From the NCBI GenBank assembly GCA_033763315.1, contig JANRKS010000019.1:459311-523310 (forward strand): DNA of 64,000 bases. Direction: 5' to 3'. Below are positions 4,092 through 37,088 of the stretch, piece after piece (the first letter of the stretch is position 1; each line of letters opens with the position of its first letter). Made by a program: the position numbers and the translations under genes. Source of the stretch: Deltaproteobacteria bacterium. Its GTDB lineage: Bacteria > Myxococcota_A > Polyangia > Fen-1088. The notes below the pieces were generated by a model. The model was not told the origin of the DNA, searched no databases, and was given only the letters and a program-made list of their open reading frames with translations.

Positions 4092-6509
4092 GTGAGAATT
4101 TCCTTTAACTGGCTGCGCGATTTTTTGCCCACGCTTCCCCGCGACCCTGTGCAGGTCGCGGCCGATCTGACGCGCCTCGGGTTTGAGGTTGAGGGCACCA
4201 CGCATCTGGGCCGTGGGTTGTCGGGCTTGTTGGTGGCCGAAGTGCTTGCCTATAGGCCTCACCCGCAGGCCAGCAAACTTCGCATCGTTACGGTGAAGGC
4301 CGGCGCGCGCACGGACGAAGTTGTGTGTGGCGCGGCCAATGTTCCCGAGCCAGGTGGCAAAGTTTGCTGGGCGCCCCCAGGGGCCACGTTGCCTGGGTTC
4401 ACGATGGCGGCGAAGGAGATTCGCGGCGTGATGTCGCCTGGCATGTTGTGCAGCGAGGAAGAGCTGGGTCTCGCGCCAAGCGCCGACGGGATCTTGATCT
4501 TGGACGCCGATGCGCCCTCCGGTGCTGATCCGGTTTCTACGTTTGGCTTGGCCGATACAGTTTTCGAGGTGAACGTCACGCCCAACCGGGGCGACGCGCT
4601 TTCGCATCTCGGTCTAGCGCGCGAACTTGCCGCGGCCTACAGCGCGGAATTGGTCATGCCTGCGACCCCCGCGTTGAAGGTGGGCGCAGGCGCCCAAGCC
4701 TTGGACGTAGTGATCCAAGACAACAAGGCCTGCCGGCGCTACCAGGCCCGTTTCTTTGCAAACGTCGTTGTTGGTCCCAGCCCACTCGCCATGCGGATGC
4801 GTTTGTTGGCCTGCGGTGTGCGTTCGATATCGAACCTTGTCGACATCACAAACTACGTGCTTCTGGAGCTGGGGCACCCACTGCATGCCTTCGACCTGGA
4901 TAAGGTCAAAGGTGCCGTTTACGTGCGGCGCGCCCATCCCGGCGAGCGATTGGTTACGCTCGATGGCGTTGAGCGCGTGCTCGAAGCTGGCGACACGGTC
5001 ATTGCTGACGAGCAAAGCCCCATTGCCTTGGCCGGCGTCATGGGAGGCCAATCGACAGAAATCGGGCCCAACACGAAGAACGTGTTGCTTGAGACGGCCA
5101 CATTCGATCCCGTGAGCGTGCGCAAGACAGCCAAGCGCTTGTCGCTGCATAGCGAAGCTTCGCACCGCTTTGAGCGTGGCGTGGATTCTGAGGGCATTGC
5201 ACGCGCAGCCGCAAGGGCCGCTGAATTGATTTGCGGTTTGGCGCAAGCGCAACAGGCGGATCAAGTTGTGGATCGCTATCCTTCGCCGCCCACGCGCCGA
5301 CAGGCCTCATTAACGTTGGCCACGCTTCGCAAGCTTTCGGGCGACACAAACCGAAACCTCGAAGGCGCCAAGCGAACCTTGTCGCGGCTGTGCGACGAAG
5401 TGCGTATCACGGGCCACGGCGACAGCGCGCGTTTGGATCTGGGGATTCCGTCGTACCGGCCCGACCTCAGCATGGAAGCCGATCTGGTGGAAGAGGTGCT
5501 GCGGCACGAAGGCTACGAAAGCGTCGTTCCCCGCCGTATGATTTTCAACGCCAAGGCCGCGCCGAACCCCGAAGCGCCGAGCGATCTGGCGCGCGCACGT
5601 TTCGTCTCCGCGGGGCTCAACGAAGTTGTGACCTGGGGCTTCGTGCCGTCGGGGTGGCTCTCGGCCTTGGCTCCTGCCGCGCCCGAAGCGCATCAACGCT
5701 TGGTCCGCGGGTTGGCCGTGTCCAATCCTATATCCGCCGACTACGAAGTCATGCGCACCTCTTTGTTGCCCGGATTGGTGGAGACGGCGAAGCGCAACCT
5801 TTCGCGTGGCGTTCAAAGCCTTGCGTTGTTCGAGGTGGGGCCTGTGGTTGAGCGCGCGGAACAGGCCGGCCATGTGACGGCTGCACAGCAAAACCACGCC
5901 TCAGCGCTGTTGTGCGGTTTGCAACCCGGGTGGCTGCGGCCCGGCGCAGCCGTCGATTTCTTTGACCTCAAACGCGTCGCCGCCGCGGTGCTTGCGGGCT
6001 TCGCCTTGCAGGACGCGCGCTACGTCCCTGTCAGTGACGTGCCGTTCTTGCATCCTGGCGTGGGGGCCTCGATCGAAGTGCAGGGGCAGCGGGTGGGCTT
6101 GTTGGGTGAACTGCACCCTCGCACGCGCAAAGCCCTGCGGCTGACCGAGACGGCCTTTTACCTCGAGCTTTACCTCGACCAATTTCCGGCCGCTGCAGCC
6201 GCGATCCACCCGATCCTGCCTCCGCGGTATCCAGCCACGACGCGTGACATCTCGTTCTGGGTGGATGAAAGCGTCACCGCCCAAGCACAACAGGATGCGT
6301 TGTGGTCCACGCCGTCGCCGCTGCTTCGCGCGGTATCCGTGCTTGAGGATTTCCGCGATCCGAAATATGTGCCCGCCAAAAAGAAGGGCATGCTGTGGAC
6401 GCTCACGTACCGCGCGGACGACCGCACACTCACGGATGCCGAAGTGGATGCCGCGCACGCTGGCGTGCTGGCCGCCTTACAAGCGGCTTTCCCACTGCAA
6501 CTGCGGTGA
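4092..6509 (+). CDS. pheT: Phenylalanine--tRNA ligase beta subunit
   Basis: MRISFNWL, VCGAANV, GMLCSEEELG, TPNRGDALS, SHRFERGVD, C-terminal RDIS..RTLTD. Confidence 0.98.
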   Translation: MRISFNWLRDFLPTLPRDPVQVAADLTRLGFEVEGTTHLGRGLSGLLVAEVLAYRPHPQASKLRIVTVKAGARTDEVVCGAANVPEPGGKVCWAPPGATLPGFTMAAKEIRGVMSPGMLCSEEELGLAPSADGILILDADAPSGADPVSTFGLADTVFEVNVTPNRGDALSHLGLARELAAAYSAELVMPATPALKVGAGAQALDVVIQDNKACRRYQARFFANVVVGPSPLAMRMRLLACGVRSISNLVDITNYVLLELGHPLHAFDLDKVKGAVYVRRAHPGERLVTLDGVERVLEAGDTVIADEQSPIALAGVMGGQSTEIGPNTKNVLLETATFDPVSVRKTAKRLSLHSEASHRFERGVDSEGIARAAARAAELICGLAQAQQADQVVDRYPSPPTRRQASLTLATLRKLSGDTNRNLEGAKRTLSRLCDEVRITGHGDSARLDLGIPSYRPDLSMEADLVEEVLRHEGYESVVPRRMIFNAKAAPNPEAPSDLARARFVSAGLNEVVTWGFVPSGWLSALAPAAPEAHQRLVRGLAVSNPISADYEVMRTSLLPGLVETAKRNLSRGVQSLALFEVGPVVERAEQAGHVTAAQQNHASALLCGLQPGWLRPGAAVDFFDLKRVAAAVLAGFALQDARYVPVSDVPFLHPGVGASIEVQGQRVGLLGELHPRTRKALRLTETAFYLELYLDQFPAAAAAIHPILPPRYPATTRDISFWVDESVTAQAQQDALWSTPSPLLRAVSVLEDFRDPKYVPAKKKGMLWTLTYRADDRTLTDAEVDAAHAGVLAALQAAFPLQLR

Positions 6510-26178: not shown

Positions 26179-27159
26179 ATGGCGATGTCGCGATCTGTGC
26201 TTGTGCATGCAGTGGGGGGCCCCGAGGTTTTGCGCCTTGAGACGGTGGACGTGCCGCCCCCAGGGCCCGGCGAGCTGCGGCTGCGGCAAACGTTCGCCGG
26301 CCTCAACTACATCGACGTTTATTACCGCACGGGCGTCTATAAAGCGCCGTCACTGCCCTTCGTGGCGGGGCAAGAAGGCGCTGGCGTGGTCGAGGCCTTG
26401 GGCCCAGGCGTGCAAGGGTTCGCCGTGGGAGATCGCGTGGCTTACGCAGGGCCCATGGGCGCCTACGCACAAACGCGCGTCTTACCTGCAGACCGCGCCG
26501 TAAAGCTGCCCGCAGAAATCCCCGACGACGTGGCCGCCGCCATGATGCTCAAAGGAATGACGGCGCAGTACCTATTGCAGCAAACCTTCGCGGTGAAGCC
26601 AGGCGACGTGGTGTTGTTTCACGCAGCCGCCGGCGGCGTGGGATTGATCGCTTGCCAGTGGGCCAAGGCGCTGGGCGCCACTGTGATAGGCACCGTGGGT
26701 TCAGATGCCAAGGCCGCGTTGGCGCGCGCGCACGGCTGCGATCACACCATTGTCTATGGCCGTGAGAACTTCGTTGAGCGCGTGCATGAAATCACGGGCG
26801 GCAAGAAGGCCTCGGTGGTTTACGACGGCGTCGGCAAAGACACGTTCGATGGCTCATTGGATTGTTTGCGTCCGCGCGGCATGATGGTGTTGTTCGGCCA
26901 GTCGTCCGGCAAAGTGCCCCCATTCGATCTAGGCCTGCTTGCCGCGAAGGGCTCGCTGTTCATCACGCGCCCTTCGTTGTTTGCCTATACGGCCAGCCGC
27001 GCCGAGCTCGAAGCGTGTGCCAAATCGCTGATCGATGTGGTGGCACGCAAGGTGGTGACGATTCCCATCGGTGCCCGCTACGCGTTGGCTGATGTGGCGC
27101 AAGCACACCGCGATCTGGAAGCGCGCCAAACAACAGGCGCCAGCGTCTTGGCTGTGTGA
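26179..27159 (+). CDS. NADPH:quinone oxidoreductase (Qor)
   Basis: GGPEVL, GLNYIDVY.RTG, HAAAGGVG, YDGVGKDTF, KGSLFITRPSL. Start reassigned to ATG 26179. Confidence 0.93.
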   Translation: MAMSRSVLVHAVGGPEVLRLETVDVPPPGPGELRLRQTFAGLNYIDVYYRTGVYKAPSLPFVAGQEGAGVVEALGPGVQGFAVGDRVAYAGPMGAYAQTRVLPADRAVKLPAEIPDDVAAAMMLKGMTAQYLLQQTFAVKPGDVVLFHAAAGGVGLIACQWAKALGATVIGTVGSDAKAALARAHGCDHTIVYGRENFVERVHEITGGKKASVVYDGVGKDTFDGSLDCLRPRGMMVLFGQSSGKVPPFDLGLLAAKGSLFITRPSLFAYTASRAELEACAKSLIDVVARKVVTIPIGARYALADVAQAHRDLEARQTTGASVLAV

Positions 27160-27163
27160 TGTG

Positions 27164-28531
27164 CTAACGGCGTTGGCTTCCCGGCGGAGGCAAAGTGGCG
27201 GTGCTGGGCTTGGCGGAGCGGTAGAGCAGAGCCGCCGCCAAGCCCAACGTGGCCAGCACGAACCACGCGCCTCGCGGTGAAACAGTCTCGAGCAAGAACA
27301 CGCCCAGCACGGGCCCGATGGTTTGCGCGGCGCCTTGAAAAAGTCCGAAGATACCGGTGTAGCGCGCGACCTTGTCGGGCGGCGCCAACGCAGCAACGCG
27401 CGCTTGTTGTGCAGGCGCGGTCATGATCTCGCACAAGGTGATGAGGCCCACGCAGGCCAACAACGAGACATGGTTGAAGGCCAGCCCGCAGGCCGCGAAA
27501 GCCGCCATATAGCCCAAGGATCCGAACACCAACGTTTTCGCCGTGCCCAGTTTGCGAATCCACTGCACGGCGGGCAGTTGCAGCATCACAACCAAGATCG
27601 CGTTGAGCGTAAACAAGGTGCCCACCTGCGCGCGCCCGAGCCCCACGTACTTGGCCGCGAACACGGACATCATGTGATACATCTGCGTTTGCAGCATGAA
27701 GTAAGCAAACGATCCGAACAGGAAGCGCAAAAACGCGGGATCGCCACCGAACGCCAACATGTCGAAAAAGCTCGGTGTTTGCCGCGGCTTTTCGGGCCGC
27801 GTTTCCGGGATGAACATCGCCATCACGGGCGCCAACAAGGTGAAGGGCGCGCAGACATAGAAAAGGAAACTGAAGTCGGCGCTCGCCGCCAGCGTGGCCA
27901 CCAACGGGCCCGCCACCCAACCCAAGCTGCTGCCGACCCGGTGCAACGAAAACGCAGCCACGCGCTCCTCGCGCGAAGCGAGCGACGCCACCACGGCCCA
28001 CGCCACGGGATCATAGAAGCCGCGCAGGGCACCGTTGACGATCGTAAGCGCAGCGATGACTCCGAACGAAGCGCCATGCCCAAGCGCGTACCCGAGCAGC
28101 GCCAGGTTTGCCGAGCGAACAATCATCCCCGCCACCAACACCGGGCGGCGGCCCACACGATCGGCCAAGTGCCCCGCCACCCATTGCATGGCTGCACATC
28201 CCGCGCTCGACATCGCCCACAAGCCGCCGATGCGCAACACAGAGATGCCGCGATCGACCACCAAGTGCATCGCCAAAAACGGCATCACGACAGCGAAGCC
28301 CGCGGTGACCACGAAGCGTACGGCTGCCAGCAGCCAAATGTGCGCGTCCATCGCGGGGATCTGGATGACGGGTGCCACGGACGCAGGGATCGTCACGCGC
28401 CGCACGGGCGCTGCTTTGTGGGGGCCAGGTGGCGCGTGCTGAGGCGGCCCCTCATCACGTAGGGTGTCGGTGGCGCGAACAGGCGCCGGGCCTGGCGGCC
28501 CCTGTTTTGCGCCGGGCGCAGGAAGGCTCAC
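27164..28531 (-). CDS. MFS transporter
   Basis: GHLADRVGRRPV motif A and about 12 hydrophobic segments; start uncertain. Confidence 0.88.
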   Translation of the reverse strand: MSLPAPGAKQGPPGPAPVRATDTLRDEGPPQHAPPGPHKAAPVRRVTIPASVAPVIQIPAMDAHIWLLAAVRFVVTAGFAVVMPFLAMHLVVDRGISVLRIGGLWAMSSAGCAAMQWVAGHLADRVGRRPVLVAGMIVRSANLALLGYALGHGASFGVIAALTIVNGALRGFYDPVAWAVVASLASREERVAAFSLHRVGSSLGWVAGPLVATLAASADFSFLFYVCAPFTLLAPVMAMFIPETRPEKPRQTPSFFDMLAFGGDPAFLRFLFGSFAYFMLQTQMYHMMSVFAAKYVGLGRAQVGTLFTLNAILVVMLQLPAVQWIRKLGTAKTLVFGSLGYMAAFAACGLAFNHVSLLACVGLITLCEIMTAPAQQARVAALAPPDKVARYTGIFGLFQGAAQTIGPVLGVFLLETVSPRGAWFVLATLGLAAALLYRSAKPSTATLPPPGSQRR

Positions 28532-28570: not shown

Positions 28571-29047
28571 CTAGACGGGACCGTAACGGCGCACTTCCAC
28601 ATACAGTTTTTGCGTGTCATCCCACGCAAATTGCACCGAGCCACGCACCCCATCGGCCTGCACGTCCACCACCAGATATTCGACGGGATAAGCGGGCTCG
28701 TCACCCATTTTTGCGGCGGCTTGATCGGTGTCGCTGAAGTAGGCGCCCACGTTGGCGTGGGAGTGGTAAATCAGCTTGGCCGGCTCGTTGCCGCGCAGGC
28801 TCTTTTGCAAGCGGAAGATGTCGCCCGTATCGAAGTTGTAGGCGGTGTGGGCGTCGCGAGAGAATTGGACCGGATCTTCGGCGTGCAGATCATCTTGAAT
28901 GTTGCGGCAGATCTGGGCGCGGTTGGCGTCTGGGGCATCCTTCGGTCCAAAGATGATGCCGCAGCACTCTTTCGGATATTCGGTGCGCGCGTGGGCGTAG
29001 ATCTCAGCCAGGGCGTTCGTGGCCACTACCGGATGTTCGTTCGACAT
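28571..29047 (-). CDS. JAB/MPN+ (JAMM, Mec-like) metallopeptidase
   Basis: YPKECCG and IYHSHANVGAYFSDTD, a canonical E..HxHx7SxxD motif. Confidence 0.93.
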   Translation of the reverse strand: MSNEHPVVATNALAEIYAHARTEYPKECCGIIFGPKDAPDANRAQICRNIQDDLHAEDPVQFSRDAHTAYNFDTGDIFRLQKSLRGNEPAKLIYHSHANVGAYFSDTDQAAAKMGDEPAYPVEYLVVDVQADGVRGSVQFAWDDTQKLYVEVRRYGPV

Positions 29048-29056
29048 GTGGGTGTT

Positions 29057-30100
29057 CTAGCGGGCGGGCGTCGTTTCGCTTGCTTGGGTTTTGGGTGACT
29101 CTTGCGCGCTGATGGGCGCCTCGAAATAGCGATCCGCGCGGTCAGGGAAAACGGTGACGATCACGCCTTTTTGGCCGGCCGCATGCAGCTGCTTGGCCAA
29201 GCGAACCGCTCCCGCCAAAGCCGCGCCTGAGGAGTGGCCCACCAAAATGCCGGCCTCGGCGCCCAACCGATCGCTGACGTCCCATGCCTCATCCGTTGGC
29301 ATCGACAGAACGCCTGTGAGCTGGTCGGGGTGATAGATCTCGGGCACAAGTGAGCTCGCCATGTGCTTGAGCCCTTCGAGGCCATGCAAGGCATCGTCGG
29401 GTTCCACTGCCCAAATCTCGACTTTGTTGTTGTGTTCGCGCAGACCGCGGCCGGTGCCCATGATGGTGCCACTCGTGCCAATGCCGGCAACGAAATGGGT
29501 GACGCGCCCTTGCGTCTGCTCCCAGATCTCTTGCGCGGTGGTGAGGTAGTGGCCACGCGGGTTCGATTCGTTGCCGTACTGGTCGGGATAGAAGAACTTT
29601 TCTGGATGCTCACCCACAAGCCTGCGGCACAAGCGAATCGCGCCGTCTGAGCCCTCGAGTTCCGACGACAGCTCAAGGTGGGTGCCAAACGCTTCGGTGA
29701 TTTTCCGACGCGCCCATGACACGTTGCCAGGCAAAACCAGCGTGATGGAGTAACCCAGGGCCGCACCGATCATTGAATAGGCAATGCCCGTGTTGCCCGA
29801 CGAGGCATCGATGAGCGTGCGATCCTTTGTGAGCCGTCCGGCCGTCACGGCGTCGCGAATCATTTGGACGGCGGCACGATCCTTGACCGACCCGCCTGGA
29901 TTCATGAATTCGCACTTGGCCCAGATCTCCACGCCGGGAAAGTCTTTGTCGAACGAGCTGAGCCGCACAAGCGGCGTGTGGCCGATAAGCTGCGTGACGT
30001 CGTCCGCCACGCGCGCACGAGCGCGTTCAACAGCCAGTTCGTCCACGTCGTAGTCGAGCGTGGAAGGTATGGATGACGGTGCGAGGGAAGTGGTGGCCAT
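29057..30100 (-). CDS. Cysteine synthase family protein (CysM-like)
   Basis: IGHTPLV, NPGGSVKDR, SSGNTG, GIGTSGT, GLEGLKH, GHSSGA. Confidence 0.92.
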   Translation of the reverse strand: MATTSLAPSSIPSTLDYDVDELAVERARARVADDVTQLIGHTPLVRLSSFDKDFPGVEIWAKCEFMNPGGSVKDRAAVQMIRDAVTAGRLTKDRTLIDASSGNTGIAYSMIGAALGYSITLVLPGNVSWARRKITEAFGTHLELSSELEGSDGAIRLCRRLVGEHPEKFFYPDQYGNESNPRGHYLTTAQEIWEQTQGRVTHFVAGIGTSGTIMGTGRGLREHNNKVEIWAVEPDDALHGLEGLKHMASSLVPEIYHPDQLTGVLSMPTDEAWDVSDRLGAEAGILVGHSSGAALAGAVRLAKQLHAAGQKGVIVTVFPDRADRYFEAPISAQESPKTQASETTPAR

Positions 30101-30125: not shown

Positions 30126-30815
30126 TTAAGGAGCGGGCCAAGCGATGTTATGCGTGATTGGATGGTTTTCGCGCGTCGAAAACGGCACGTTTAGGTGTCG
30201 AATGACGCCTGTGGCCGCGGCTTCGGCAGACACACCCGGGCCACGGCCAAGCAAAGACCACAACACTTCGGTTGCGGCCAGGGTGCCCGCCAACACGTCG
30301 GTGCCGTGATCGATGGCAGACACATCCGACTGTGGGTGACTCGGCCCGGGCGGCACGCTGGGAACGTCGCTGTCGGGGCCTCCCGGCGCCGGTCGGAGGG
30401 ATAGCAGGTCTAAAGCGCCCGAATCTTTGCGCCACCGGGCCACAACGGCGGGGACGCGCAGGCGTCGGCACGCTTCCACAAAGGAATCGTCCGCAAAGCT
30501 CGCCCGCAGGGCTACATCGCACCCGGCAAGCGCCGCAGCCCACGCCGATCCCGCTGAGGCGACTTTGACTTCGTCAAAGCGTGCAGCCGGGGCAAGCGCC
30601 GCCAGCGATGAGGCGTCCGCCGCGGCTGGCAGCAGCACCCGGAAGGCCCGCACGCCCGCGCACGCCAAATAAAGCGTGGCCGTCTCAAGGGCCAATGTGC
30701 CCTCGGCGTCCACAACCAACGCCACCGTTGCGTCCAAAATGCGTTGCTGGCCCCTGGATCCCACTTCGGGAAGGGCCACATGACGGATGAAACGGCGGGC
30801 GTCGGCGAAATCCAT
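30126..30815 (-). CDS. Degenerate (non-catalytic) ThiF/MoeB-family protein
   Basis: Keeps RRFIRHVALPEVGSRGQQRI, YLACAGV and LAGTLAATEVLWSLLG; lacks GxGxxG, SNLxRQ and both CxxC pairs. Confidence 0.75.
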   Translation of the reverse strand: MDFADARRFIRHVALPEVGSRGQQRILDATVALVVDAEGTLALETATLYLACAGVRAFRVLLPAAADASSLAALAPAARFDEVKVASAGSAWAAALAGCDVALRASFADDSFVEACRRLRVPAVVARWRKDSGALDLLSLRPAPGGPDSDVPSVPPGPSHPQSDVSAIDHGTDVLAGTLAATEVLWSLLGRGPGVSAEAAATGVIRHLNVPFSTRENHPITHNIAWPAP

Positions 30816-30872
30816 GGCAAGCACAAGCCGCCAACCTACTTTGCCGGGCGGGGCAGAGCAGGGGCTTTGGTA

Positions 30873-31148
30873 TTAGCGGCCGCCAGCGATCGCGGGAACG
30901 ATCGAGATTTCGTCGCTGTCTTTCACAGCGGTTTCAAGATTCTGTTGAAAGCGAATGTCTTCGTCGTTGGCGAAAATATTCACGAAGCGACGCACTTTGC
31001 CTTGGTCGTCGCAAATGCGTTCTTTGATGCCGGGGTATTGCGTTTCAAGCGACGCAATCACCTGCGCGATGTTGGCGCCGCTGGCCTGGACTTCCTCAAG
31101 ACCGTTCGTGAGCTTGCGAAGTGGTGTGGGAATGCGGACGGTGGCCAT
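30873..31148 (-). CDS. MoaD/ThiS/CysO-family ubiquitin-like sulfur carrier
   Basis: VRIPTPLRKLT..RRFVNIFANDEDIRF..EISIVPAIAGG-R. Confidence 0.95.
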   Translation of the reverse strand: MATVRIPTPLRKLTNGLEEVQASGANIAQVIASLETQYPGIKERICDDQGKVRRFVNIFANDEDIRFQQNLETAVKDSDEISIVPAIAGGR

Positions 31149-31205
31149 GGAAGATGTCTCCTTAGTGTTTTCAGACGAGATGTGATGAGCAGGCGGTGCC
31201 AGAGG

Positions 31206-32507
31206 TTACGAGACGTAACCGGTAAAGGCCCCGGAACCAACCAATTGATCGAAGTCGCCCAACTTGGGGCCGATGAGGCTGGGCTTCCGCACGCGGTCAA
31301 CCAGCGGATCTTGCGTTTTGAGGCCTTGGCCTGTGATGGACAAAACCACCGGACCATCGTTGGAACCAATGCGGCCTTGTTGCACCAATTTTTTGGCGGC
31401 ACCCAAAGTCACGCCGCCTGCCGTTTCGGTGAAAATGCCCTCGTTTTCCGCCAGAGCCAAGATGGCTTCGCAAATATCGTCATCGTTGGGCAACGCGGCG
31501 AAACCGCCTGAACCCAGCATTGACTGGCGGGCGTAGATGGCGTCGGCAGGGTTGCCGATGGCCAAGCTTTTGGCGATCGTTTGCGGGGTTTTCACCGGCT
31601 TTACGTAATCACGCTCCTCCACAACCATCGACGCGATCGGGCCGCAGCCGGCCGCTTGTGCGCCGTGGATCTTGGTGGCGCGTGATTCCACAAAGCCAAG
31701 CTTCGTGAATTCCTTGAACGCCTTATCGATCTTGGTGATGAGCGAGCCACCGGCCATGGGCACAACCACGTGCGCCGGCACTTTCCAGCCCAGTTGCTCG
31801 GCGATTTCATAGCCAAATGCCTTTGAGCCTTCGGCGTAAAACGGCCGCAAGTTCACGTTCACGAAGCCCCAACCGTACTTGCCCGCGATCTCGGAGCACA
31901 AGCGGTTGACGTCATCGTAAGTGCCGTTGACGCCCACGACGCGCGCGCCGTAAACGCTGGTGGCCAGAACCTTTGCAGGTTCGAGGTCGTGCGGAATCAA
32001 AATGACGGCGGGCATACCCACGGACGCCGCTTGCGACGCGGTGGCATTCGCCAGGTTGCCTGTGCTGGCGCACGCCACAACCTTGATACCGAATTCGCGT
32101 GCCTTGCTGATCGCCACAGACACCACGCGGTCCTTGAAAGACAGGGTGGGGTAGCTAACCGAATCGTTCTTAAGCCACAGCTCTTTGACGCCCAGCCATT
32201 TGGCCAAGCGATCGGCCTTCACAAGCGGGGTCATTCCGGTTTGCGCACCCACCGAGGGTGGGCCATCAAGCGGCAACAGCTCAGCGTAACGCCACATCGA
32301 GTTCATGCGGTTCTCGATCGCTTTGCGCGTGAGCGACTTCGCGATGGCCTCGTAGTCGTAGGCGATTTCCAATGGCCCAAAGCAGAACTCACACACGTGA
32401 ATCGGTTGCTTCGGGTACTCGCTGCCGCACTCGCGGCACTTCATGGCTTTGACGAAAGACACTTCGCTTTGGTTCTTGCTGAGGTTATGGGCTGACACGG
32501 CGTTCAT
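31206..32507 (-). CDS. Threonine-synthase-like PLP enzyme with N-terminal Zn ribbon
   Basis: CRECG..CEFCFG, PTLSFKDR, CASTGNLA, NLRPFYAEGSK, IAKSLAIGNPAD, ITGQGLKT. Confidence 0.9.
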   Translation of the reverse strand: MNAVSAHNLSKNQSEVSFVKAMKCRECGSEYPKQPIHVCEFCFGPLEIAYDYEAIAKSLTRKAIENRMNSMWRYAELLPLDGPPSVGAQTGMTPLVKADRLAKWLGVKELWLKNDSVSYPTLSFKDRVVSVAISKAREFGIKVVACASTGNLANATASQAASVGMPAVILIPHDLEPAKVLATSVYGARVVGVNGTYDDVNRLCSEIAGKYGWGFVNVNLRPFYAEGSKAFGYEIAEQLGWKVPAHVVVPMAGGSLITKIDKAFKEFTKLGFVESRATKIHGAQAAGCGPIASMVVEERDYVKPVKTPQTIAKSLAIGNPADAIYARQSMLGSGGFAALPNDDDICEAILALAENEGIFTETAGGVTLGAAKKLVQQGRIGSNDGPVVLSITGQGLKTQDPLVDRVRKPSLIGPKLGDFDQLVGSGAFTGYVS

Positions 32508-33268
32508 GGGTTCTCGCTCCGACGGTGCAAGGGCTGGCAGGCCGGGGCGCCGTAGGCCCGAGCGTCCAAGCCGGTGATCGCAGGCGCATCACCACACACC
32601 CGACAAGCGGGATTGCGGCGGAAGGTGATGGTGCGCATGGTCATGGCGGGCGAATCATAGCGGATGAGACGGCCGGAAAAGGCTGGTGTCTTACCACAAA
32701 GTAAACGAATCGCCTCGTTCGCTTGTGCAGATCCCAAAACCCCCGGCACGGGTCCCAAAACGCCCGCTTCGGCGCAGTTGGGCGCGTCGGCGCCAGAAGG
32801 TAGCTCCTCGAACAGGCACCGGTAACAAGGTCGCCCCCCCGCTGGCACCGTGATGAGCTGGCCCATCGTGCCCACAGCTGCGGCGTGCACAAAGGCTTTG
32901 CCCCCAAGCACGCACGCATCGTTGACCAAGAACTTGGTTTCCAGGTTGTCGGAGCCGTCCAGAACCACGTCGTGCGCGGCGACCAACGCGGCGGCGTTCA
33001 GGGTTGAAAAACGTTCACGGCGCGGCGTGACCGCGGTTTGCGGAAAACGCTTGCGTAAAAAACCGGCGATGGAATCCACTTTGGGATGGCCGATGAACGC
33101 GTCCGTGTGAAGCACCTGGCGGTGCAGGTTCGACTCATCGACCAAGTCGTCATCCAGCACTGTAAGTTCCGCCAGGCCGGCGGCGACCAACGTTAAGGCT
33201 GCGCCACAGCCCAAACCACCAGCGCCAATTAACAACACCCGGCCGGGCAACAACGCAGAAGCACTCAC
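32504..33268 (-). CDS. ThiF/MoeB-family adenylyltransferase (E1-like), N-terminally short
   Basis: IGAGGLG, DESNLHRQ, DGSDN, CYRC, NCAEAG, CRVC. Start GTG 33268 overlaps the cysK stop (GTGA). Confidence 0.93.
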   Translation of the reverse strand: MSASALLPGRVLLIGAGGLGCGAALTLVAAGLAELTVLDDDLVDESNLHRQVLHTDAFIGHPKVDSIAGFLRKRFPQTAVTPRRERFSTLNAAALVAAHDVVLDGSDNLETKFLVNDACVLGGKAFVHAAAVGTMGQLITVPAGGRPCYRCLFEELPSGADAPNCAEAGVLGPVPGVLGSAQANEAIRLLCGKTPAFSGRLIRYDSPAMTMRTITFRRNPACRVCGDAPAITGLDARAYGAPACQPLHRRSENP

Positions 33269-34254
33269 GAGCGGGAACCCGGCTCCGCCAGACCCGGGAA
33301 CTGTTTGGCGAACGCTTCGTCGGTGCTGAAGTAACGTTCCCCGGTGTCGCACAAAACAGTGACCACCGTTTTGCCTGGACCAAGCGCGGCCGCCACTTCC
33401 AAAGCCACCTTCACTGACGCGCCAGCCGAGATGCCCACCAGCAAGCCTTCTTTGCGGGCCAACGCCAACTTGGTGCGTTGCGCGTCTTCCTCGGTCACGC
33501 GACGAACGTCCGACAACAAACTGCGATCCAGAATGTCTGGAACGAAGCCAGCGCCGATGCCGTCGATGCGGTGTTCGCCGGGCAGTCCGCCCGATAGCAC
33601 GGGGCTGCGATCGGGTTCGACGGCGATCAACAACACGTTGGGGTTTGCCCTGCGAAACGCCTGACCCACGCCGGTGATCGTGCCGCCCGTGCCAACGCCG
33701 GCCACGAACGCATCAGGCTTGCGGCCGTCCAACGTTTGCAGCTGCGCCAAGATCTCCGGCCCGGTGGTGTGCCTGTGGGCCGCCGGGTTGGCTGGGTTCT
33801 TGAATTGTTGCAACATGACGAACGAAGGGTTTTCTTCGCATAGCTCAAGAGCCTTGCGAACGGCGCCGTTCATCACGTCAGCGGCGGGCGTGAGATGCAG
33901 TTCCGCGCCATAGGCCTTCAACAACATGCGACGCTCGAGCGACATGTTGTCGGGCATCGTGAGGATGAGCCGGTAGCCTTTGACGGCGCACACCAACGCC
34001 AGGCCCACGCCCGTGTTGCCAGAGGTGGGCTCGACCAACACCGTCTTACCAGGCACCAAGCGTCCCTCGCGTTCGGCGGTTTCGATCATGGAAAGCGCGA
34101 CGCGATCTTTAACGCTGCCACCAGGGTTGAAATGCTCGCACTTGGCGAACACATCCGCCGACGCTGCGCCGGGCAGATTTCGCAAGCGCACAAGCGGGGT
34201 GCCGCCGATCAGCGCCAGCATGTTGCGAACCACAGGAAGGTCAGGGCGGGACAC
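33265..34254 (-). CDS. cysK: Cysteine synthase A
   Basis: NPGGSVKDR, EPTSGNTG, MSLERR, QQFKNPANP, GVGTGGT, HRIDGIGAGFVP, DTGERYFST. Confidence 0.93.
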   Translation of the reverse strand: MSRPDLPVVRNMLALIGGTPLVRLRNLPGAASADVFAKCEHFNPGGSVKDRVALSMIETAEREGRLVPGKTVLVEPTSGNTGVGLALVCAVKGYRLILTMPDNMSLERRMLLKAYGAELHLTPAADVMNGAVRKALELCEENPSFVMLQQFKNPANPAAHRHTTGPEILAQLQTLDGRKPDAFVAGVGTGGTITGVGQAFRRANPNVLLIAVEPDRSPVLSGGLPGEHRIDGIGAGFVPDILDRSLLSDVRRVTEEDAQRTKLALARKEGLLVGISAGASVKVALEVAAALGPGKTVVTVLCDTGERYFSTDEAFAKQFPGLAEPGSRS

Positions 34255-34255
34255 G

Positions 34256-34615
34256 TTAAGGCCTTTCGCCGATGTCTACGATGCTGCACGCATTGATGGG
34301 GTCAAGTCCCAGCTTCTCAGCTTCAGCGATGAGGGCGTCGCTTTCCGCGCCGGGGTTCACCCAAAATTCCTTGGGGGCCTTGTCACGAATGGCAGGCAGC
34401 AACGCCAAGCCGACGGCCGGGGGCACATAAAGCGAGATGCGGTCGATGGCTTCGCTGATGTCTTCCAAACGCCTGACCACGGGCAGCCCTTCAATCGTTT
34501 CTTCGCTTGGGTTCACCGGGATCACTTTCCAACCCTGGCGTTGGTAAGCACGAACGGCTTTGTTGCCGAACTTCTTCGGATCATTTGAAGCGCCCACAAC
34601 CACGACGGTAGGCAC
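34256..34615 (-). CDS. CoA-binding domain protein (YccU-like)
   Basis: VVGASNDPKKFG, IPVNP, WVNPGAES. Start reassigned to GTG 34615. Confidence 0.88.
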   Translation of the reverse strand: MPTVVVVGASNDPKKFGNKAVRAYQRQGWKVIPVNPSEETIEGLPVVRRLEDISEAIDRISLYVPPAVGLALLPAIRDKAPKEFWVNPGAESDALIAEAEKLGLDPINACSIVDIGERP

Positions 34616-34616
34616 C

Positions 34617-34952
34617 TTACAGGCCTTCCGTTTCGGCGGCCGTGCGGCCGCACTCTGAACATCGGCCTTGAGCGTCCAGCAGGCCAGTGCAGGCGCCATC
34701 AGGACACAAGCGGCGGCTTGGATCCAGGCCGGACAGCTCTGACGAATCGTCGGCGGAAGCGGAAAACACAACCTCCCCCGCCTCAGGCGCAAGATTCGTC
34801 TCGGGCCCGAGCGAGGCCACGGTGGGTGCATTCACAAACGTTCGGCGGCATTCGGCGCACCAGCCGGATTCGTCCAACACGCCCGTGCAGGCACCATCCG
34901 GACACAGCCGGCGGGTGGTCGGATCAAACGCGGTCTCTTCGGTCGCACTCAT
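34617..34952 (-). CDS. Small protein with two tandem Cys4 (Cx4Cx9Cx2C) repeats
   Basis: RRLCPDGACTGVLDESGWCAEC and RRLCPDGACTGLLDAQGRCSEC; stop lies 1 bp before the next start. Confidence 0.8.
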   Translation of the reverse strand: MSATEETAFDPTTRRLCPDGACTGVLDESGWCAECRRTFVNAPTVASLGPETNLAPEAGEVVFSASADDSSELSGLDPSRRLCPDGACTGLLDAQGRCSECGRTAAETEGL

Positions 34953-35051
34953 GGGTGTGGCAAATCCAAACAATCAAGGAAAACATTCAGGAAAGCGAGG
35001 CCCAGGCTTTGAAAGCCGCCCCGGAACAAGGCATATAGTGACGCACTCGCC

Positions 35052-36275
35052 ATGTCCACTCCATCGTCAACGTCATCAGGCAGGTTTGGGCCCTTCGGGG
35101 GCCGTTATGTGTCGGAAACACTGATTCCGTCACTCGACGAATTGACGGCGGCTTGGGAGCGCGAGTCAAAGAACCCTGAGTTTCTGGCTGAAGTGGACCG
35201 GCTGCTCAAGGACTACGTGGGCCGCCCAACGCCGCTTTCACGTGCGGATCGCTTGGCTGCTGACCTGCTCAAGGAAACCGGCAAGCGTGTGCGGCTTTAC
35301 CTAAAGCGCGAGGACTTGTGCCACACGGGCGCGCACAAGATCAACAACACCATCGGCCAAGTGCTGCTGGCAAAGCGGATGGGAAAAACGCGCATCATCG
35401 CCGAGACGGGCGCGGGCCAGCACGGCGTTGCCACGGCCACGGCGTGTGCTTTGTTCGGAATGCCGTGTGAGGTCTACATGGGCGCGGTGGACGTGGAGCG
35501 ACAAGCGCTCAACGTGTTCCGCATGAAGCTGCTGGGCGCCAAAGTTCACGCCGTCACAGGCGGAACGGCCACACTTAAAGACGCCATGAACGAGGCCCTG
35601 CGCGACTGGGTCACGAACGTGCGCGACACCTACTACGTGATCGGTTCGGTGGCGGGGCCGCACCCGTACCCGACGCTGGTGCGCGATCTCCAGGCCGTGA
35701 TCGGCCGTGAGGCGCGCGCGCAGGTACTGGAAGCCACAGGCCAACTGCCTGATGCGGCCGTGGCTTGCGTGGGCGGCGGCTCGAACGCTATGGGCTTGTT
35801 CCACGCGTTTGTTCCGGATGCCACGGTTCAGCTTTTCGGCGTCGAAGCGGCGGGCGACGGCGTGAACACGGGGCGGCACGCGGCCACGCTCACGGCGGGC
35901 AAAGTGGGCGTGTTGCACGGGTCGAAATCCTACGTTTTGTGCGACGACGAAGGCCAAATCGCCGAAGCGCATTCAATTTCAGCGGGCTTGGATTACCCAG
36001 GCGTGGGGCCCGAGCACTCGTATCTGAAAGACACGGGCCGGGCGAAATACGTTTCTGTCACCGACACAGAGGCGCTGGCGGGCCTGCAACGTTTGGGGCG
36101 CAACGAAGGCATCTTGTGCGCGCTCGAAACCGCGCACGCTGTGGCAGCGCTGCCGCAAGTGCTGGCGCAGTTGCCTGACAACGCGGTGGTGGTTGTGAAC
36201 ATCTCGGGCCGCGGCGACAAAGACATGGGGCACGTGGCCAAGGCGTTGGGCGTTGAGCTGGGAGGCAAAGCTTAA
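35052..36275 (+). CDS. trpB: Tryptophan synthase beta chain
   Basis: [57 protein letters not shown]. Confidence 0.98.
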
Positions 36276-37088
36276 ATGGCCGCTGCTTCGACACGCATTG
36301 CCCAAGCGTTCGCGAAGGCCACCGCCGAAGGCCGCAAGGCGCTGGTCATTTACCTTACCGCCGGTGATCCCAACATCGAAACCAGCTTCGAGCTCATCCT
36401 GGCTGCGGCGGATGCCGGCATGGATGTGCTTGAGCTCGGCATTCCGTGGAGCGATCCCTCAGCCGATGGTTTGGCGATTCAAGGCGCCATGCAACGGGCT
36501 CTGGAGGCGGGCGGCGGAATGTCCGCGGCCCTGAAGCTATGTAGACGGTTGCGTGAGGCGCGCCCCGCGCTGCCGATTGTTCTGTTCGGTTATGCGAACC
36601 CCATCGTCGTCAAAGGCTGTGCTGCCTTCGCGAAGGCGGCGCGCGAGGCCGGGGCCGACGCCGTGTTGTGCGTGGACTGGCCGGCCGATGAGGATCGCGA
36701 GCTGCCGAACGCCCTGGCGGCCGAAGGTCTGGCGTTTGTGCCCCTGTTGGCACCCACGTCCACGCCCGATCGTGTGCGGGCGGCGTTAGACGTGGCCGGC
36801 GGTTTCGTTTATTACGTTTCGCTCACCGGCATCACGGGCGCCAAGCTCACGGATTTCTCCGGCCCTGCGGCGCACGTGGCCCAAATCCGCGCGGCCGCCG
36901 AAAACCGCTTGCCCGTCGTGGTGGGCTTCGGCATCGCGACCGCCGCCGATGTCAAGACGGTGGCTGCCTTCGCGGACGGGGTCGTGGTGGGCAGCGCCGC
37001 CGTGCGGGTCATCGAGACGACGCCCAAAGATGGGGTTTCCAAGGCCTTGTCCACAATGATTGGCGGATTGGCCGCCGGCTTAAAATAG
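36276..37088 (+). CDS. trpA: Tryptophan synthase alpha chain
   Basis: YLTAGDP, ELGIPWSDPSADG, YYVSLTGITG, VGFGI, DGVVVGSA. Confidence 0.97.
   Translation: MAAASTRIAQAFAKATAEGRKALVIYLTAGDPNIETSFELILAAADAGMDVLELGIPWSDPSADGLAIQGAMQRALEAGGGMSAALKLCRRLREARPALPIVLFGYANPIVVKGCAAFAKAAREAGADAVLCVDWPADEDRELPNALAAEGLAFVPLLAPTSTPDRVRAALDVAGGFVYYVSLTGITGAKLTDFSGPAAHVAQIRAAAENRLPVVVGFGIATAADVKTVAAFADGVVVGSAAVRVIETTPKDGVSKALSTMIGGLAAGLK

Follow-up and report, generated by a model that had tools for sequence, protein, structure and literature searches.

In the textbook view, the ubiquitin-type E1 enzymes go back to the homodimeric MoeB and ThiF. The Escherichia coli MoeB-MoaD and ThiF-ThiS systems are built on symmetric homodimers with two active sites, and their structures have been solved (PDB 1jw9/1jwa and 1zud/1zfn, respectively). 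The eukaryotic E1s NAE1(APPBP1)-UBA3, SAE1-SAE2 and Uba1 are composed of one inactive and one active adenylation domain, and APPBP1 and SAE1 are the inactive subunits which supply the N-terminal arginine. Here we describe a sulfur-carrier operon from a Deltaproteobacteria bacterium (GTDB lineage Bacteria; Myxococcota_A; Polyangia; Fen-1088), located in a stretch of 64,000 nucleotides which is referred to as the window (assembly GCA_033763315.1, contig JANRKS010000019.1, positions 459,311 to 523,310; all coordinates below are those of the window). The operon encodes a short MoeB, which carries the catalytic motifs and lacks the N-terminal arginine-finger helix, and a degenerate ThiF-fold paralogue, here called pseudo-E1, which keeps this helix and lacks the catalytic motifs. 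The two proteins probably work together as an asymmetric heterodimer.

The arginine fingers of ThiF (Arg11) and MoeB (Arg14) are described as being given by the neighbouring subunit (PMC13139853), and roles have been assigned to MoeB Arg73 and Asp130 (PMC12355090, PMC13139853). According to the review PMC12355090, Arg57 and Arg515 of hUBA1 lie at the gamma-phosphate site. Where PMC10557695 and PMC12355090 deal with the bacterial E1-like activators of sulfur carriers, these are homodimers, and the sole asymmetric bacterial case named there is the defence protein BilD. BilD is the fused inactive/active E1 of the antiviral, ubiquitination-like BilABCD system, and its inactive adenylation domain supplies Arg9; the remaining E1-like proteins known from bacteria, MoeB and Cap2 among them, are stated to form homodimers (PMC10557695). 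In yeast, the ThiF-family paralogues Tcd1 and Tcd2 form a heterodimer in which the dead Tcd1 gives Arg59 and one active site is left (PMC13139853). In the literature which we searched, no active/pseudo heterodimer of the MoeB/ThiF type was described for a bacterial sulfur-carrier operon; this literature did not include Burroughs et al. (2009), who may treat inactive E1-like paralogues.

The active subunit of the system in the window has the fold of MoeB and ThiF and the full set of their catalytic motifs; a ThiS/MoaD-type carrier, the predicted dimer interface and the N-terminal arginine are also shared, as Arg11 of the pseudo-E1 falls in the column of ThiF Arg11. Each protomer of MoeB or ThiF has both the helix and the catalytic motifs, whereas they are split over two gene products here. 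Like the eukaryotic E1s, the system has an inactive and an active adenylation domain, the N-terminal arginine being kept by the inactive one, and the profile of the pseudo-E1 weakly matches the SAE1 N-terminus (E ~1e-3). In contrast to these enzymes, it has no catalytic-cysteine domain, ubiquitin-fold domain or E2 (no E2-like gene was found in the operon among the gene and Pfam assignments of the window), and its context is sulfur transfer and not conjugation. It resembles an E1 in the adenylation half only and is not a canonical E1. The domain order of BilD recurs in two of the natural fusions described below (P0065 and P0159), but BilD bears a CYS domain in its one chain, has an E2 partner and serves in phage defence, whereas two genes of a metabolic operon are mostly involved here. 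The Tcd1-Tcd2 pair differs in being a eukaryotic dehydratase which forms cyclic N6-threonylcarbamoyladenosine (ct6A), with a tRNA substrate and full-length subunits bearing extra C-terminal domains, and Tcd2 has no N-terminal truncation of the short-MoeB kind.

Division of the E1 motifs between two proteins

The gene of the short MoeB (32504-33268, minus strand; 254 amino acids; Pfam ThiF, E 1.2e-64) begins with a GTG which overlaps the TGA stop of cysK as GTGA. The initial annotation of the locus, made from the sequence alone, had placed the start at this GTG, about 13 residues ahead of the P-loop, and had described a protein with the catalytic motifs present and the N-terminal helix missing. 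Both statements were borne out. The P-loop GAGGLG occupies residues 15-20 (33209-33226, minus strand) and the phosphate-binding motif SNLHRQ residues 46-51 (33116-33133, minus strand), inside the predicted contact segment 45-52. They are accompanied by DGSDN (104-108), CYRC (148-151), NCAEAG (164) and CRVC (222-225). In an alignment of 24 short-MoeB orthologues (A3), the P-loop, N47, L48, R50, Q51, D104 and five cysteines, including C148, C151, C222 and C225, are invariant. Although the Pfam ThiF domain spans nearly all of the 254 amino acids, it covers profile positions 17-238 of 238 only. Similarly, NCBIfam PRK05690 matches only from position 29/250, and the MoeB and SAMP-E1 models from about position 28. 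Of the five ThiF-family matches in the same genome, the four others begin at profile position 1-3. The helix with the pattern RYxRQ...G..GQ was absent upstream of the P-loop in all of the assessable short-MoeB orthologues (27/27). The short MoeB also has no rhodanese domain.

We also examined whether the true start could lie further upstream and supply an equivalent arginine. The alternative GTG at 33352 was rejected: an extension from this codon would overlap cysK by 84 nucleotides and is without the RxxRQ...G..GQ motif. Counted from the cysK stop, the P-loop codon follows after 14-71 nucleotides (5-24 codons) in the 19 operons compared (the window and 18 orthologues), and all three frame relations between the two genes occur; the distance in the window is 38 nucleotides. 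A canonical MoeB requires about 28 or more codons ahead of the P-loop, as judged from the full-length MoeB of a related operon (L076). Since only 14-71 nucleotides separate the cysK stop from the P-loop, in all frames, no conserved extension of the short MoeB is possible. The conservation of an upstream string RHRRALLQ proved to be that of the cysK C-terminus read in another frame. Two irregular arrangements were seen among the orthologues. In L038 (G034:C6, ~5615-6442), the short MoeB is split over two frames by a frameshift or an assembly error, and the pseudo-E1 is intact; in L048 and L050 (genomes G025 and G010), cysK lies ~2.5 kb from the short MoeB and does not abut it.

The pseudo-E1 (30126-30815, minus strand; 229 amino acids, ATG start) begins with MDFADARRFIRHVALPEVGSRGQQRI. 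The arginine-finger helix motif RRFIRHVALPEVGSRGQQ occupies residues 7-24 (30744-30797, minus strand), with Arg11 aligned to ThiF Arg11, and the helix LAGTLAATEVL, which forms the core of the predicted dimer interface, residues 175-185 (30261-30293, minus strand). No GxGxxG P-loop, SNLxRQ, DxxDN or CxxC was found in the protein of the window. The translation is thereby in agreement with the initial annotation, according to which both helices are kept and the P-loop, SNLxRQ and zinc ligands are gone. The proposed equivalence of Arg11 with MoeB Arg14 is supported by the alignment as well, as Arg11 stands in the column of ThiF Arg11, which is equated with MoeB Arg14 in PMC13139853.

A Pfam search with the single pseudo-E1 sequence gave no family. 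The NCBIfam MoeB/ThiF models match its N-terminal part only (best match residues 7-98, E 2.2e-11), with matches that begin at model position 1-8. A search of 5.8 billion proteins yielded a pseudo-E1 family of 10 clusters. The profile built from 37 sequences (A2) matched ThiF (1zfn) in the PDB over the full length (1-224) with E 2.1e-16; further matches were MoeB (1jw9, E 4e-11), Uba4 and the SAE1 N-terminus mentioned above. A stretch of ~20 residues around SNLxRQ, present in ThiF and the short MoeB, is deleted from the pseudo-E1, as seen in the alignments of A2 with the PDB entries and with hhalign. In the hhalign comparison of the two families, pseudo-E1 columns 29-226 correspond to short-MoeB (A3) columns 7-230 with a probability of 96.5%, and the first 28 columns are unmatched. 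Because of this alignment pattern, the short MoeB and the pseudo-E1 are, at the sequence level, paralogues with reciprocal, complementary losses. The AlphaFold2 (AF2) model of the pseudo-E1 had a predicted local distance difference test score (pLDDT) of 86.1 and a predicted template modelling score (pTM) of 0.84, and ThiF, Uba4 and MoeB were the top matches when it was used as the query in Foldseek.

Eight columns of A2 are invariant, and five of them (R11, L15, G19, G22 and Q23) belong to the finger helix. A181 is invariant, and R8, E17 and E183 are conserved in at least 90% of the sequences. The ratio of nonsynonymous to synonymous substitution rates (dN/dS) was calculated pairwise by the Nei-Gojobori method for 17 pairs with more than 60% amino-acid identity among 22 loci with both genes. 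It ranged from 0.25 to 0.54 for the pseudo-E1 vs 0.12-0.42 for the short MoeB and was below one for the pseudo-E1 in all 17 pairs, as the initial annotation had anticipated. The selection on the pseudo-E1 is purifying and somewhat more relaxed than that on the short MoeB. Instead of the lack of conservation or neutral decay which would have argued against the proposed pairing, we found a conserved gene, the open reading frame (ORF) of which is intact in 31 fetched loci and in the window. The length of the protein varies from ~100 to 258 amino acids across relatives. The genus of the window has the most degenerate pseudo-E1, and other genera keep a GPCPH motif and a C-terminal ...PECFACGG. In L048, L050 and L051, no ATG, GTG or TTG was found at the expected pseudo-E1 start; the first aligned residue is a leucine which directly follows a stop codon. 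The split anatomy is far more than chance and recurs in the orthologous operons examined.

Co-occurrence, fusions and descent of the two genes

Co-occurrence was counted from hidden Markov model hits combined with a strict motif regular expression; L001, which is the same contig as L036, was counted once. A looser regular expression was discarded, as it gave false matches in arginine-rich out-of-frame ORFs. In the family to which the window belongs, the pseudo-E1 was present in 31 of 37 genomes (including that of the window; 30 loci were fetched and checked). The gene order cysK, short MoeB, ThrC-like gene, ThiS gene, pseudo-E1, CysM gene, JAB gene is kept in the family, the ThrC-like gene being missing in a few loci. 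All 27 operons with a visible MoeB N-terminus (26 of this family and that of genome G055 from family f16) combined a motif-less MoeB with a pseudo-E1.

In other families of the class, 20 neighbourhoods were found via the JAB gene (85 of 151 genomes matched). A truncated MoeB together with a pseudo-E1, mostly in short forms of 99-157 amino acids, was encoded in 11 of them, a pseudo-E1 with the MoeB position beyond the contig end in two, and neither gene in three. In one neighbourhood (L076), the operon MoeB is full-length and carries the motif, and no pseudo-E1 was found in the locus or the genome. The last three, all from family f11, have a truncated MoeB alone and are discussed below. On metagenome contigs, the pseudo-E1 was found at 17 loci. 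All five with enough upstream flank showed a truncated MoeB, in the operon order truncated MoeB, ThrC-like gene, ThiS gene, CysM gene, pseudo-E1; two others had a fragment of an E1 where the contig ends, and the remaining 10 were too short. A further 58 metagenome loci contained a single canonical MoeB only. As a baseline, canonical MoeB loci of other phyla had the motif and the P-loop in one protein in 22 cases out of 22. Overall, a truncated MoeB was present in 43/43 assessable operons with a pseudo-E1, and a pseudo-E1 in 43/46 operons with a truncated MoeB. The suggestion that the two always co-occur was thus upheld from the side of the pseudo-E1 and failed from the side of the truncated MoeB.

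At E <=1e-30, an exhaustive profile search gave 48 representative clusters; at E <=1e-10 there were 2076, canonical MoeBs included. The N-terminal motif without a P-loop and without SNLxRQ was found in 107 of the 156 proteins in hand. A second group (alignment A4, 34 sequences) has invariant R9, Y10, S11, R12, G20, G23 and Q24 and two invariant cysteines; two further cysteines are conserved in at least 90% of the sequences, and both CxxC pairs are kept. These proteins match Pfam ThiF in two stretches which skip the SNLxRQ region and are named adenylyltransferases in some sources. Two unusual architectures were noticed. P0102 (390 amino acids) matches rhodanese and, in two stretches, ThiF (Pfam). 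Its N-terminal motif is present, its P-loop is degenerate (GSGGLRS) and SNLxRQ is missing; from this domain content, it may be a pseudo-E1 carrying a sulfurtransferase domain. P0027 (364 amino acids), in which a pseudo-E1 is followed by a peroxidase-like segment (PF00141), is probably a chimeric gene call or assembly.

Both parts also occur in one polypeptide. The proteins P0065 (448 amino acids), P0159 (449) and P0091 (386) start with a pseudo-E1 part which has the motif and no P-loop; a MoeB domain then follows, which starts at position 9 or 18 of the ThiF profile and contains no second motif. P0065 and P0159 represent six sequences in two clusters, and the P0159 cluster contains five sequences from JGI, ENA, NCBI and Logan. 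The AF2 model of P0159, calculated from a six-row alignment, was too poor to use (pLDDT 50.5, pTM 0.43). As far as protein sequences can tell, the natural fusions independently support the pairing of the two subunits.

In the trees of the MoeB core, the truncated MoeBs of the class group together, with support of 95-98 in the Shimodaira-Hasegawa-like approximate likelihood ratio test (SH-aLRT), and L076 is their sister in one analysis (84). The truncated MoeBs of the metagenome form a separate clade (SH-aLRT 98). For the IQ-TREE analyses and the approximately unbiased (AU) test, 32 near-duplicate loci were dropped; for FastTree, three in four of the canonical rows from metagenomes were left out. 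The class and metagenome forms came out apart both with FastTree and in a quick IQ-TREE run, which would mean independent origins of the truncation. This was not upheld: a single clade of all 29 truncated rows was compatible with the AU test (p 0.816), and the tree constrained to it had a log-likelihood higher by 26.5 units. All 24 pseudo-E1 rows fall on one side of a branch (SH-aLRT 96) and are not sisters of the MoeB of their own operon. This grouping may reflect either a common origin or long-branch attraction between degenerate sequences. The initial annotation had proposed reciprocal loss after duplication. The complementary paralogues seen with hhalign agree with this; as to the number of events, the sequence data are compatible with one old duplication followed by reciprocal loss and also with more than one origin.

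The putative heterodimer and rival explanations

We consider it likely that the two proteins form an asymmetric active/pseudo MoeB heterodimer in which the finger helix is supplied in trans. The short MoeB would hold every catalytic element, i.e., the P-loop, the arginine of SNLHRQ, the aspartate of DGSDN, the zinc site and the loop cysteine. The pseudo-E1 would be a nucleotide-blind ThiF fold in which the surface for dimerisation and the N-terminal RxxR(Q/H)...G..GQ helix remain. Joined 1:1, the subunits would make up a pseudo-symmetric heterodimer like that of MoeB, but with one active site, where the helix of the pseudo-E1 (Arg11, perhaps also Arg8) would cover the phosphates of ATP and the active subunit's SNLHRQ segment. 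The role of the pseudo-E1 would be that of the second protomer in the MoeB/ThiF homodimers and of the inactive domain in NAE1-UBA3, SAE1-SAE2, Uba1 and BilD.

The complex was predicted from the short-MoeB alignment, ATP and the pseudo-E1 alignment in three runs with three controls. The interface score derived from predicted aligned errors (ipSAE) was 0.92 in each of the three runs vs 0.00 in the best control. The mark applied to this score is reached by 58 of 80 solved complexes and by two of 110 mismatched pairs, a calibration which is only rough here, as our own alignments and ATP were included. The runs had at least 91% of the contacts in common, and the pLDDT of the partner was at least 83. 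On the side of the pseudo-E1, the predicted interface comprises residues 7-12, 14-15 and 17-18 of the finger helix and residues 167-186 around the LAGTLAATEVL helix, the contacts with the lowest predicted error being those of residues 174-182. On the side of the short MoeB, residues 45-52 (ESNLHRQV) are touched by pseudo-E1 residues 7-18. The interface so predicted is that of the canonical ThiF dimer. The heterodimer suggested by the initial annotation was thus obtained in the prediction, with the finger helix beside ESNLHRQV of the partner, although a likeness to solved homodimers may have contributed.

Several observations weigh against this model or limit its scope. The score of the complex may reflect memory of, or likeness to, the solved MoeB and ThiF homodimers. 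The partner has only 100-160 amino acids in many lineages, and the first 56-97 profile positions alone align significantly. In 11 short pseudo-E1 forms, the retention of the interface, measured by hmmalign and by individually significant hmmsearch stretches, was 35% of the 51 interface positions vs a mean of 34% for the others, i.e., there was no enrichment. Retention of the interface helix in these forms is likewise not claimed, as the weak second stretches near profile positions 150-200 are not significant alone. The genomes compared are related and not independent, and as few as one or two events in evolution may underlie the co-occurrence. In three class neighbourhoods of family f11 (L086, L091 and L092), the operon has a truncated MoeB and no pseudo-E1, and a whole-genome profile search of the f11 genomes found the motif only in canonical MoeB-rhodanese proteins of ~412-415 amino acids. 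Because these genomes have no partner, a truncated MoeB can persist without a pseudo-E1, and the term obligate used for the heterodimer in the initial annotation cannot be maintained. For MoeB and ThiF, the arginine fingers are reported in PMC13139853 as not essential, TcdA as being without one, and the R59A replacement in Tcd1 as having little effect.

The MoeBs of the three f11 loci, which come from genomes G057, G046 and G161, stand on a long stem branch (0.96, SH-aLRT 99), which may represent compensatory change after the loss of the partner. Because of the dispensability in f11, the non-essential fingers and the shortened partners, the role of the pseudo-E1 possibly extends beyond arginine catalysis: its value may lie as much in stability, active-site closure or carrier handling. 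The pair as such is conserved over the myxobacterial class and beyond, is fused in some lineages and has a dispensable partner in at least one.

Some of the same observations would suit a different, rather unlikely explanation, in which the short MoeB is active alone as a finger-less homodimer and the pseudo-E1 is a scaffold or adaptor (for the carrier, CysM, the ThrC-like enzyme or JAB) or a shrinking remnant. The f11 operons, the non-essential finger of MoeB/ThiF and its absence from TcdA (PMC13139853), the variable length of the pseudo-E1 (~100-258 amino acids) and its dN/dS, which is often above that of the short MoeB, are all consistent with it. However, conservation of the pseudo-E1 is highest in precisely that helix which MoeB has lost, and the operon with a full-length MoeB (L076) has no partner. 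Moreover, the fusions put both parts in one chain, the contact surface of the prediction is that of the canonical ThiF dimer, and dN/dS of the pseudo-E1 was below one in 17 pairs out of 17.

The heterodimer prediction would fit equally well if the pseudo-E1 were a regulatory 'poison' subunit, which by heterodimerising halves or blocks the active sites and tunes carrier activation; such tuning is a speculation of the authors of PMC13139853 for Tcd1-Tcd2. This appears improbable for a gene which lies constitutively within a biosynthetic operon, with frames that often overlap or abut; the fused forms lock a 1:1 ratio, and an inhibitor would not need the invariant finger-helix motif. An annotation or assembly artefact, by which either MoeB starts upstream with a helix of its own or the pseudo-E1 is a decayed pseudogene, is hardly credible. 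A longer in-frame ORF does exist from the GTG at 33352, but the extension overlaps cysK and is motif-free, the spacing between the cysK stop and the P-loop is just as short in all 19 operons, and the pseudo-E1, with its dN/dS below one, has an intact ORF in the window and in the 31 loci fetched. The asymmetric heterodimer with a helix supplied in trans is therefore the explanation which we prefer.

Operon context and significance of the split activator

The two genes belong to a tight operon on the minus strand. Its first gene encodes a CoA_binding_2 protein (34256-34831) and is followed by cysK (cysteine synthase A, 33265-34254; TIGR01139, 402.5 bits vs the cut-off 350.95), the short MoeB, a ThrC-like pyridoxal phosphate enzyme with an N-terminal Cys-rich ribbon (31206-32507; PALP, E 8.8e-65; TIGR00260, 255 bits), a ThiS/MoaD-type sulfur carrier of 91 amino acids (30873-31148; Pfam ThiS, E 9.8e-17; NCBIfam SAMP1, 62.7 bits, cut-off 60), the pseudo-E1, a CysM-like cysteine synthase (29057-30100; PALP, E 5.2e-65; TIGR01138 cysM, 321.6 bits, below the cut-off 394.2) and a Mec-like JAB/JAMM metalloprotease (28571-29047; Pfam Prok-JAB, E 8.8e-17). 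According to the Pfam and NCBIfam assignments, one operon thus encodes a carrier which has Gly-Gly at its C-terminus, together with a synthase of the CysM type, a ThrC-like enzyme and a JAB protease, and the order is also found in 31 related loci and 20 loci of the class. Operons of the type ThiS/MoaD, E1-like, JAB and cysteine synthase are given in Table 1, row 4c, of Iyer et al. (2006; PMC1779556), and a MetO/MetM/Mec/MoeZ route has been described (10.1101/2024.10.14.618325). The set of carrier, CysM-type enzyme, ThrC-like MetM-type enzyme and JAB protease is like that of CysO-CysM-Mec-MoeZ in Mycobacterium and MetO-MetM-Mec-MoeZ in Streptomyces. In those pathways, however, the activator is the single protein MoeZ (E1 and rhodanese), whereas no rhodanese is present here and the E1 is split into an active and a pseudo subunit.

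On the basis of its gene content, the operon is probably of the carrier-thiocarboxylate type of cysteine synthesis and probably serves homocysteine synthesis as well. The ThrC-like enzyme is a plausible candidate for a MetM-like homocysteine synthase which depends on the carrier thiocarboxylate; a further thrC match elsewhere in the source genome makes such a role for the operon gene plausible. The carrier ends in ...AGGR, one residue beyond Gly-Gly. Its sequence suggests that it probably needs trimming by the JAB protease of the operon before activation.

The operon is adjoined by trpB and trpA on the plus strand (35052-37088). On the other flank there is a major facilitator superfamily transporter gene (27164-28531, minus strand) and then a gene for a zinc-type alcohol dehydrogenase/quinone oxidoreductase (~26200-27159, plus strand). 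An ORF of 118 codons (34617-34973, minus strand) contains two copies of RRLCPDGACTG.LD..G.C.EC.RT, which resemble a tandem zinc ribbon, and it gave no Pfam family. It overlaps an unlikely N-terminal extension of the CoA_binding_2 ORF, the relatives of which match only from about residue 70. Rfam searched at the gathering threshold gave no match between 24000 and 40000 of the window, and a promoter scan gave no promoter-like site. The 13 terminator-like sites found by a terminator scan are near the shuffle mean of 9.0 (standard deviation 2.4).

It is conceivable, and we put it forward tentatively as somewhat short of an even prospect, that bacterial sulfur-carrier metabolism has evolved its own eukaryote-style asymmetric E1 and that living lineages may still show stages of the change. 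A full-length MoeB of the homodimer type in the same operon (L076) would represent one such stage, and the active/pseudo two-gene pair with a full-size pseudo subunit, as in the window, another. The pseudo subunit pared down to an N-terminal module of ~100-160 residues with the finger helix, the single-chain fusions in which, like in Uba1 and BilD, the pseudo-E1 precedes the active domain (P0065, P0159 and P0091) and the f11 operons, where the partner would have been lost altogether, could be further ones.

The annotation labels currently given to these proteins, adenylyltransferase for many pseudo-subunits and ordinary MoeB for the truncated subunit, hide a probable two-gene requirement when pathways of cysteine and methionine synthesis are reconstructed. 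If the pairing holds true, the two subunits would provide simple, expressible proteins for testing what an N-terminal helix and its arginine contribute in trans. Should both the heterodimer and the arginine in trans prove real, the pair would be a tractable bacterial model for the origin of heterodimeric and pseudo-dimeric E1s from MoeB-like homodimers. The split and the fusions would then mean that the step from a homodimer to an active/inactive pair also occurred inside primary sulfur metabolism.

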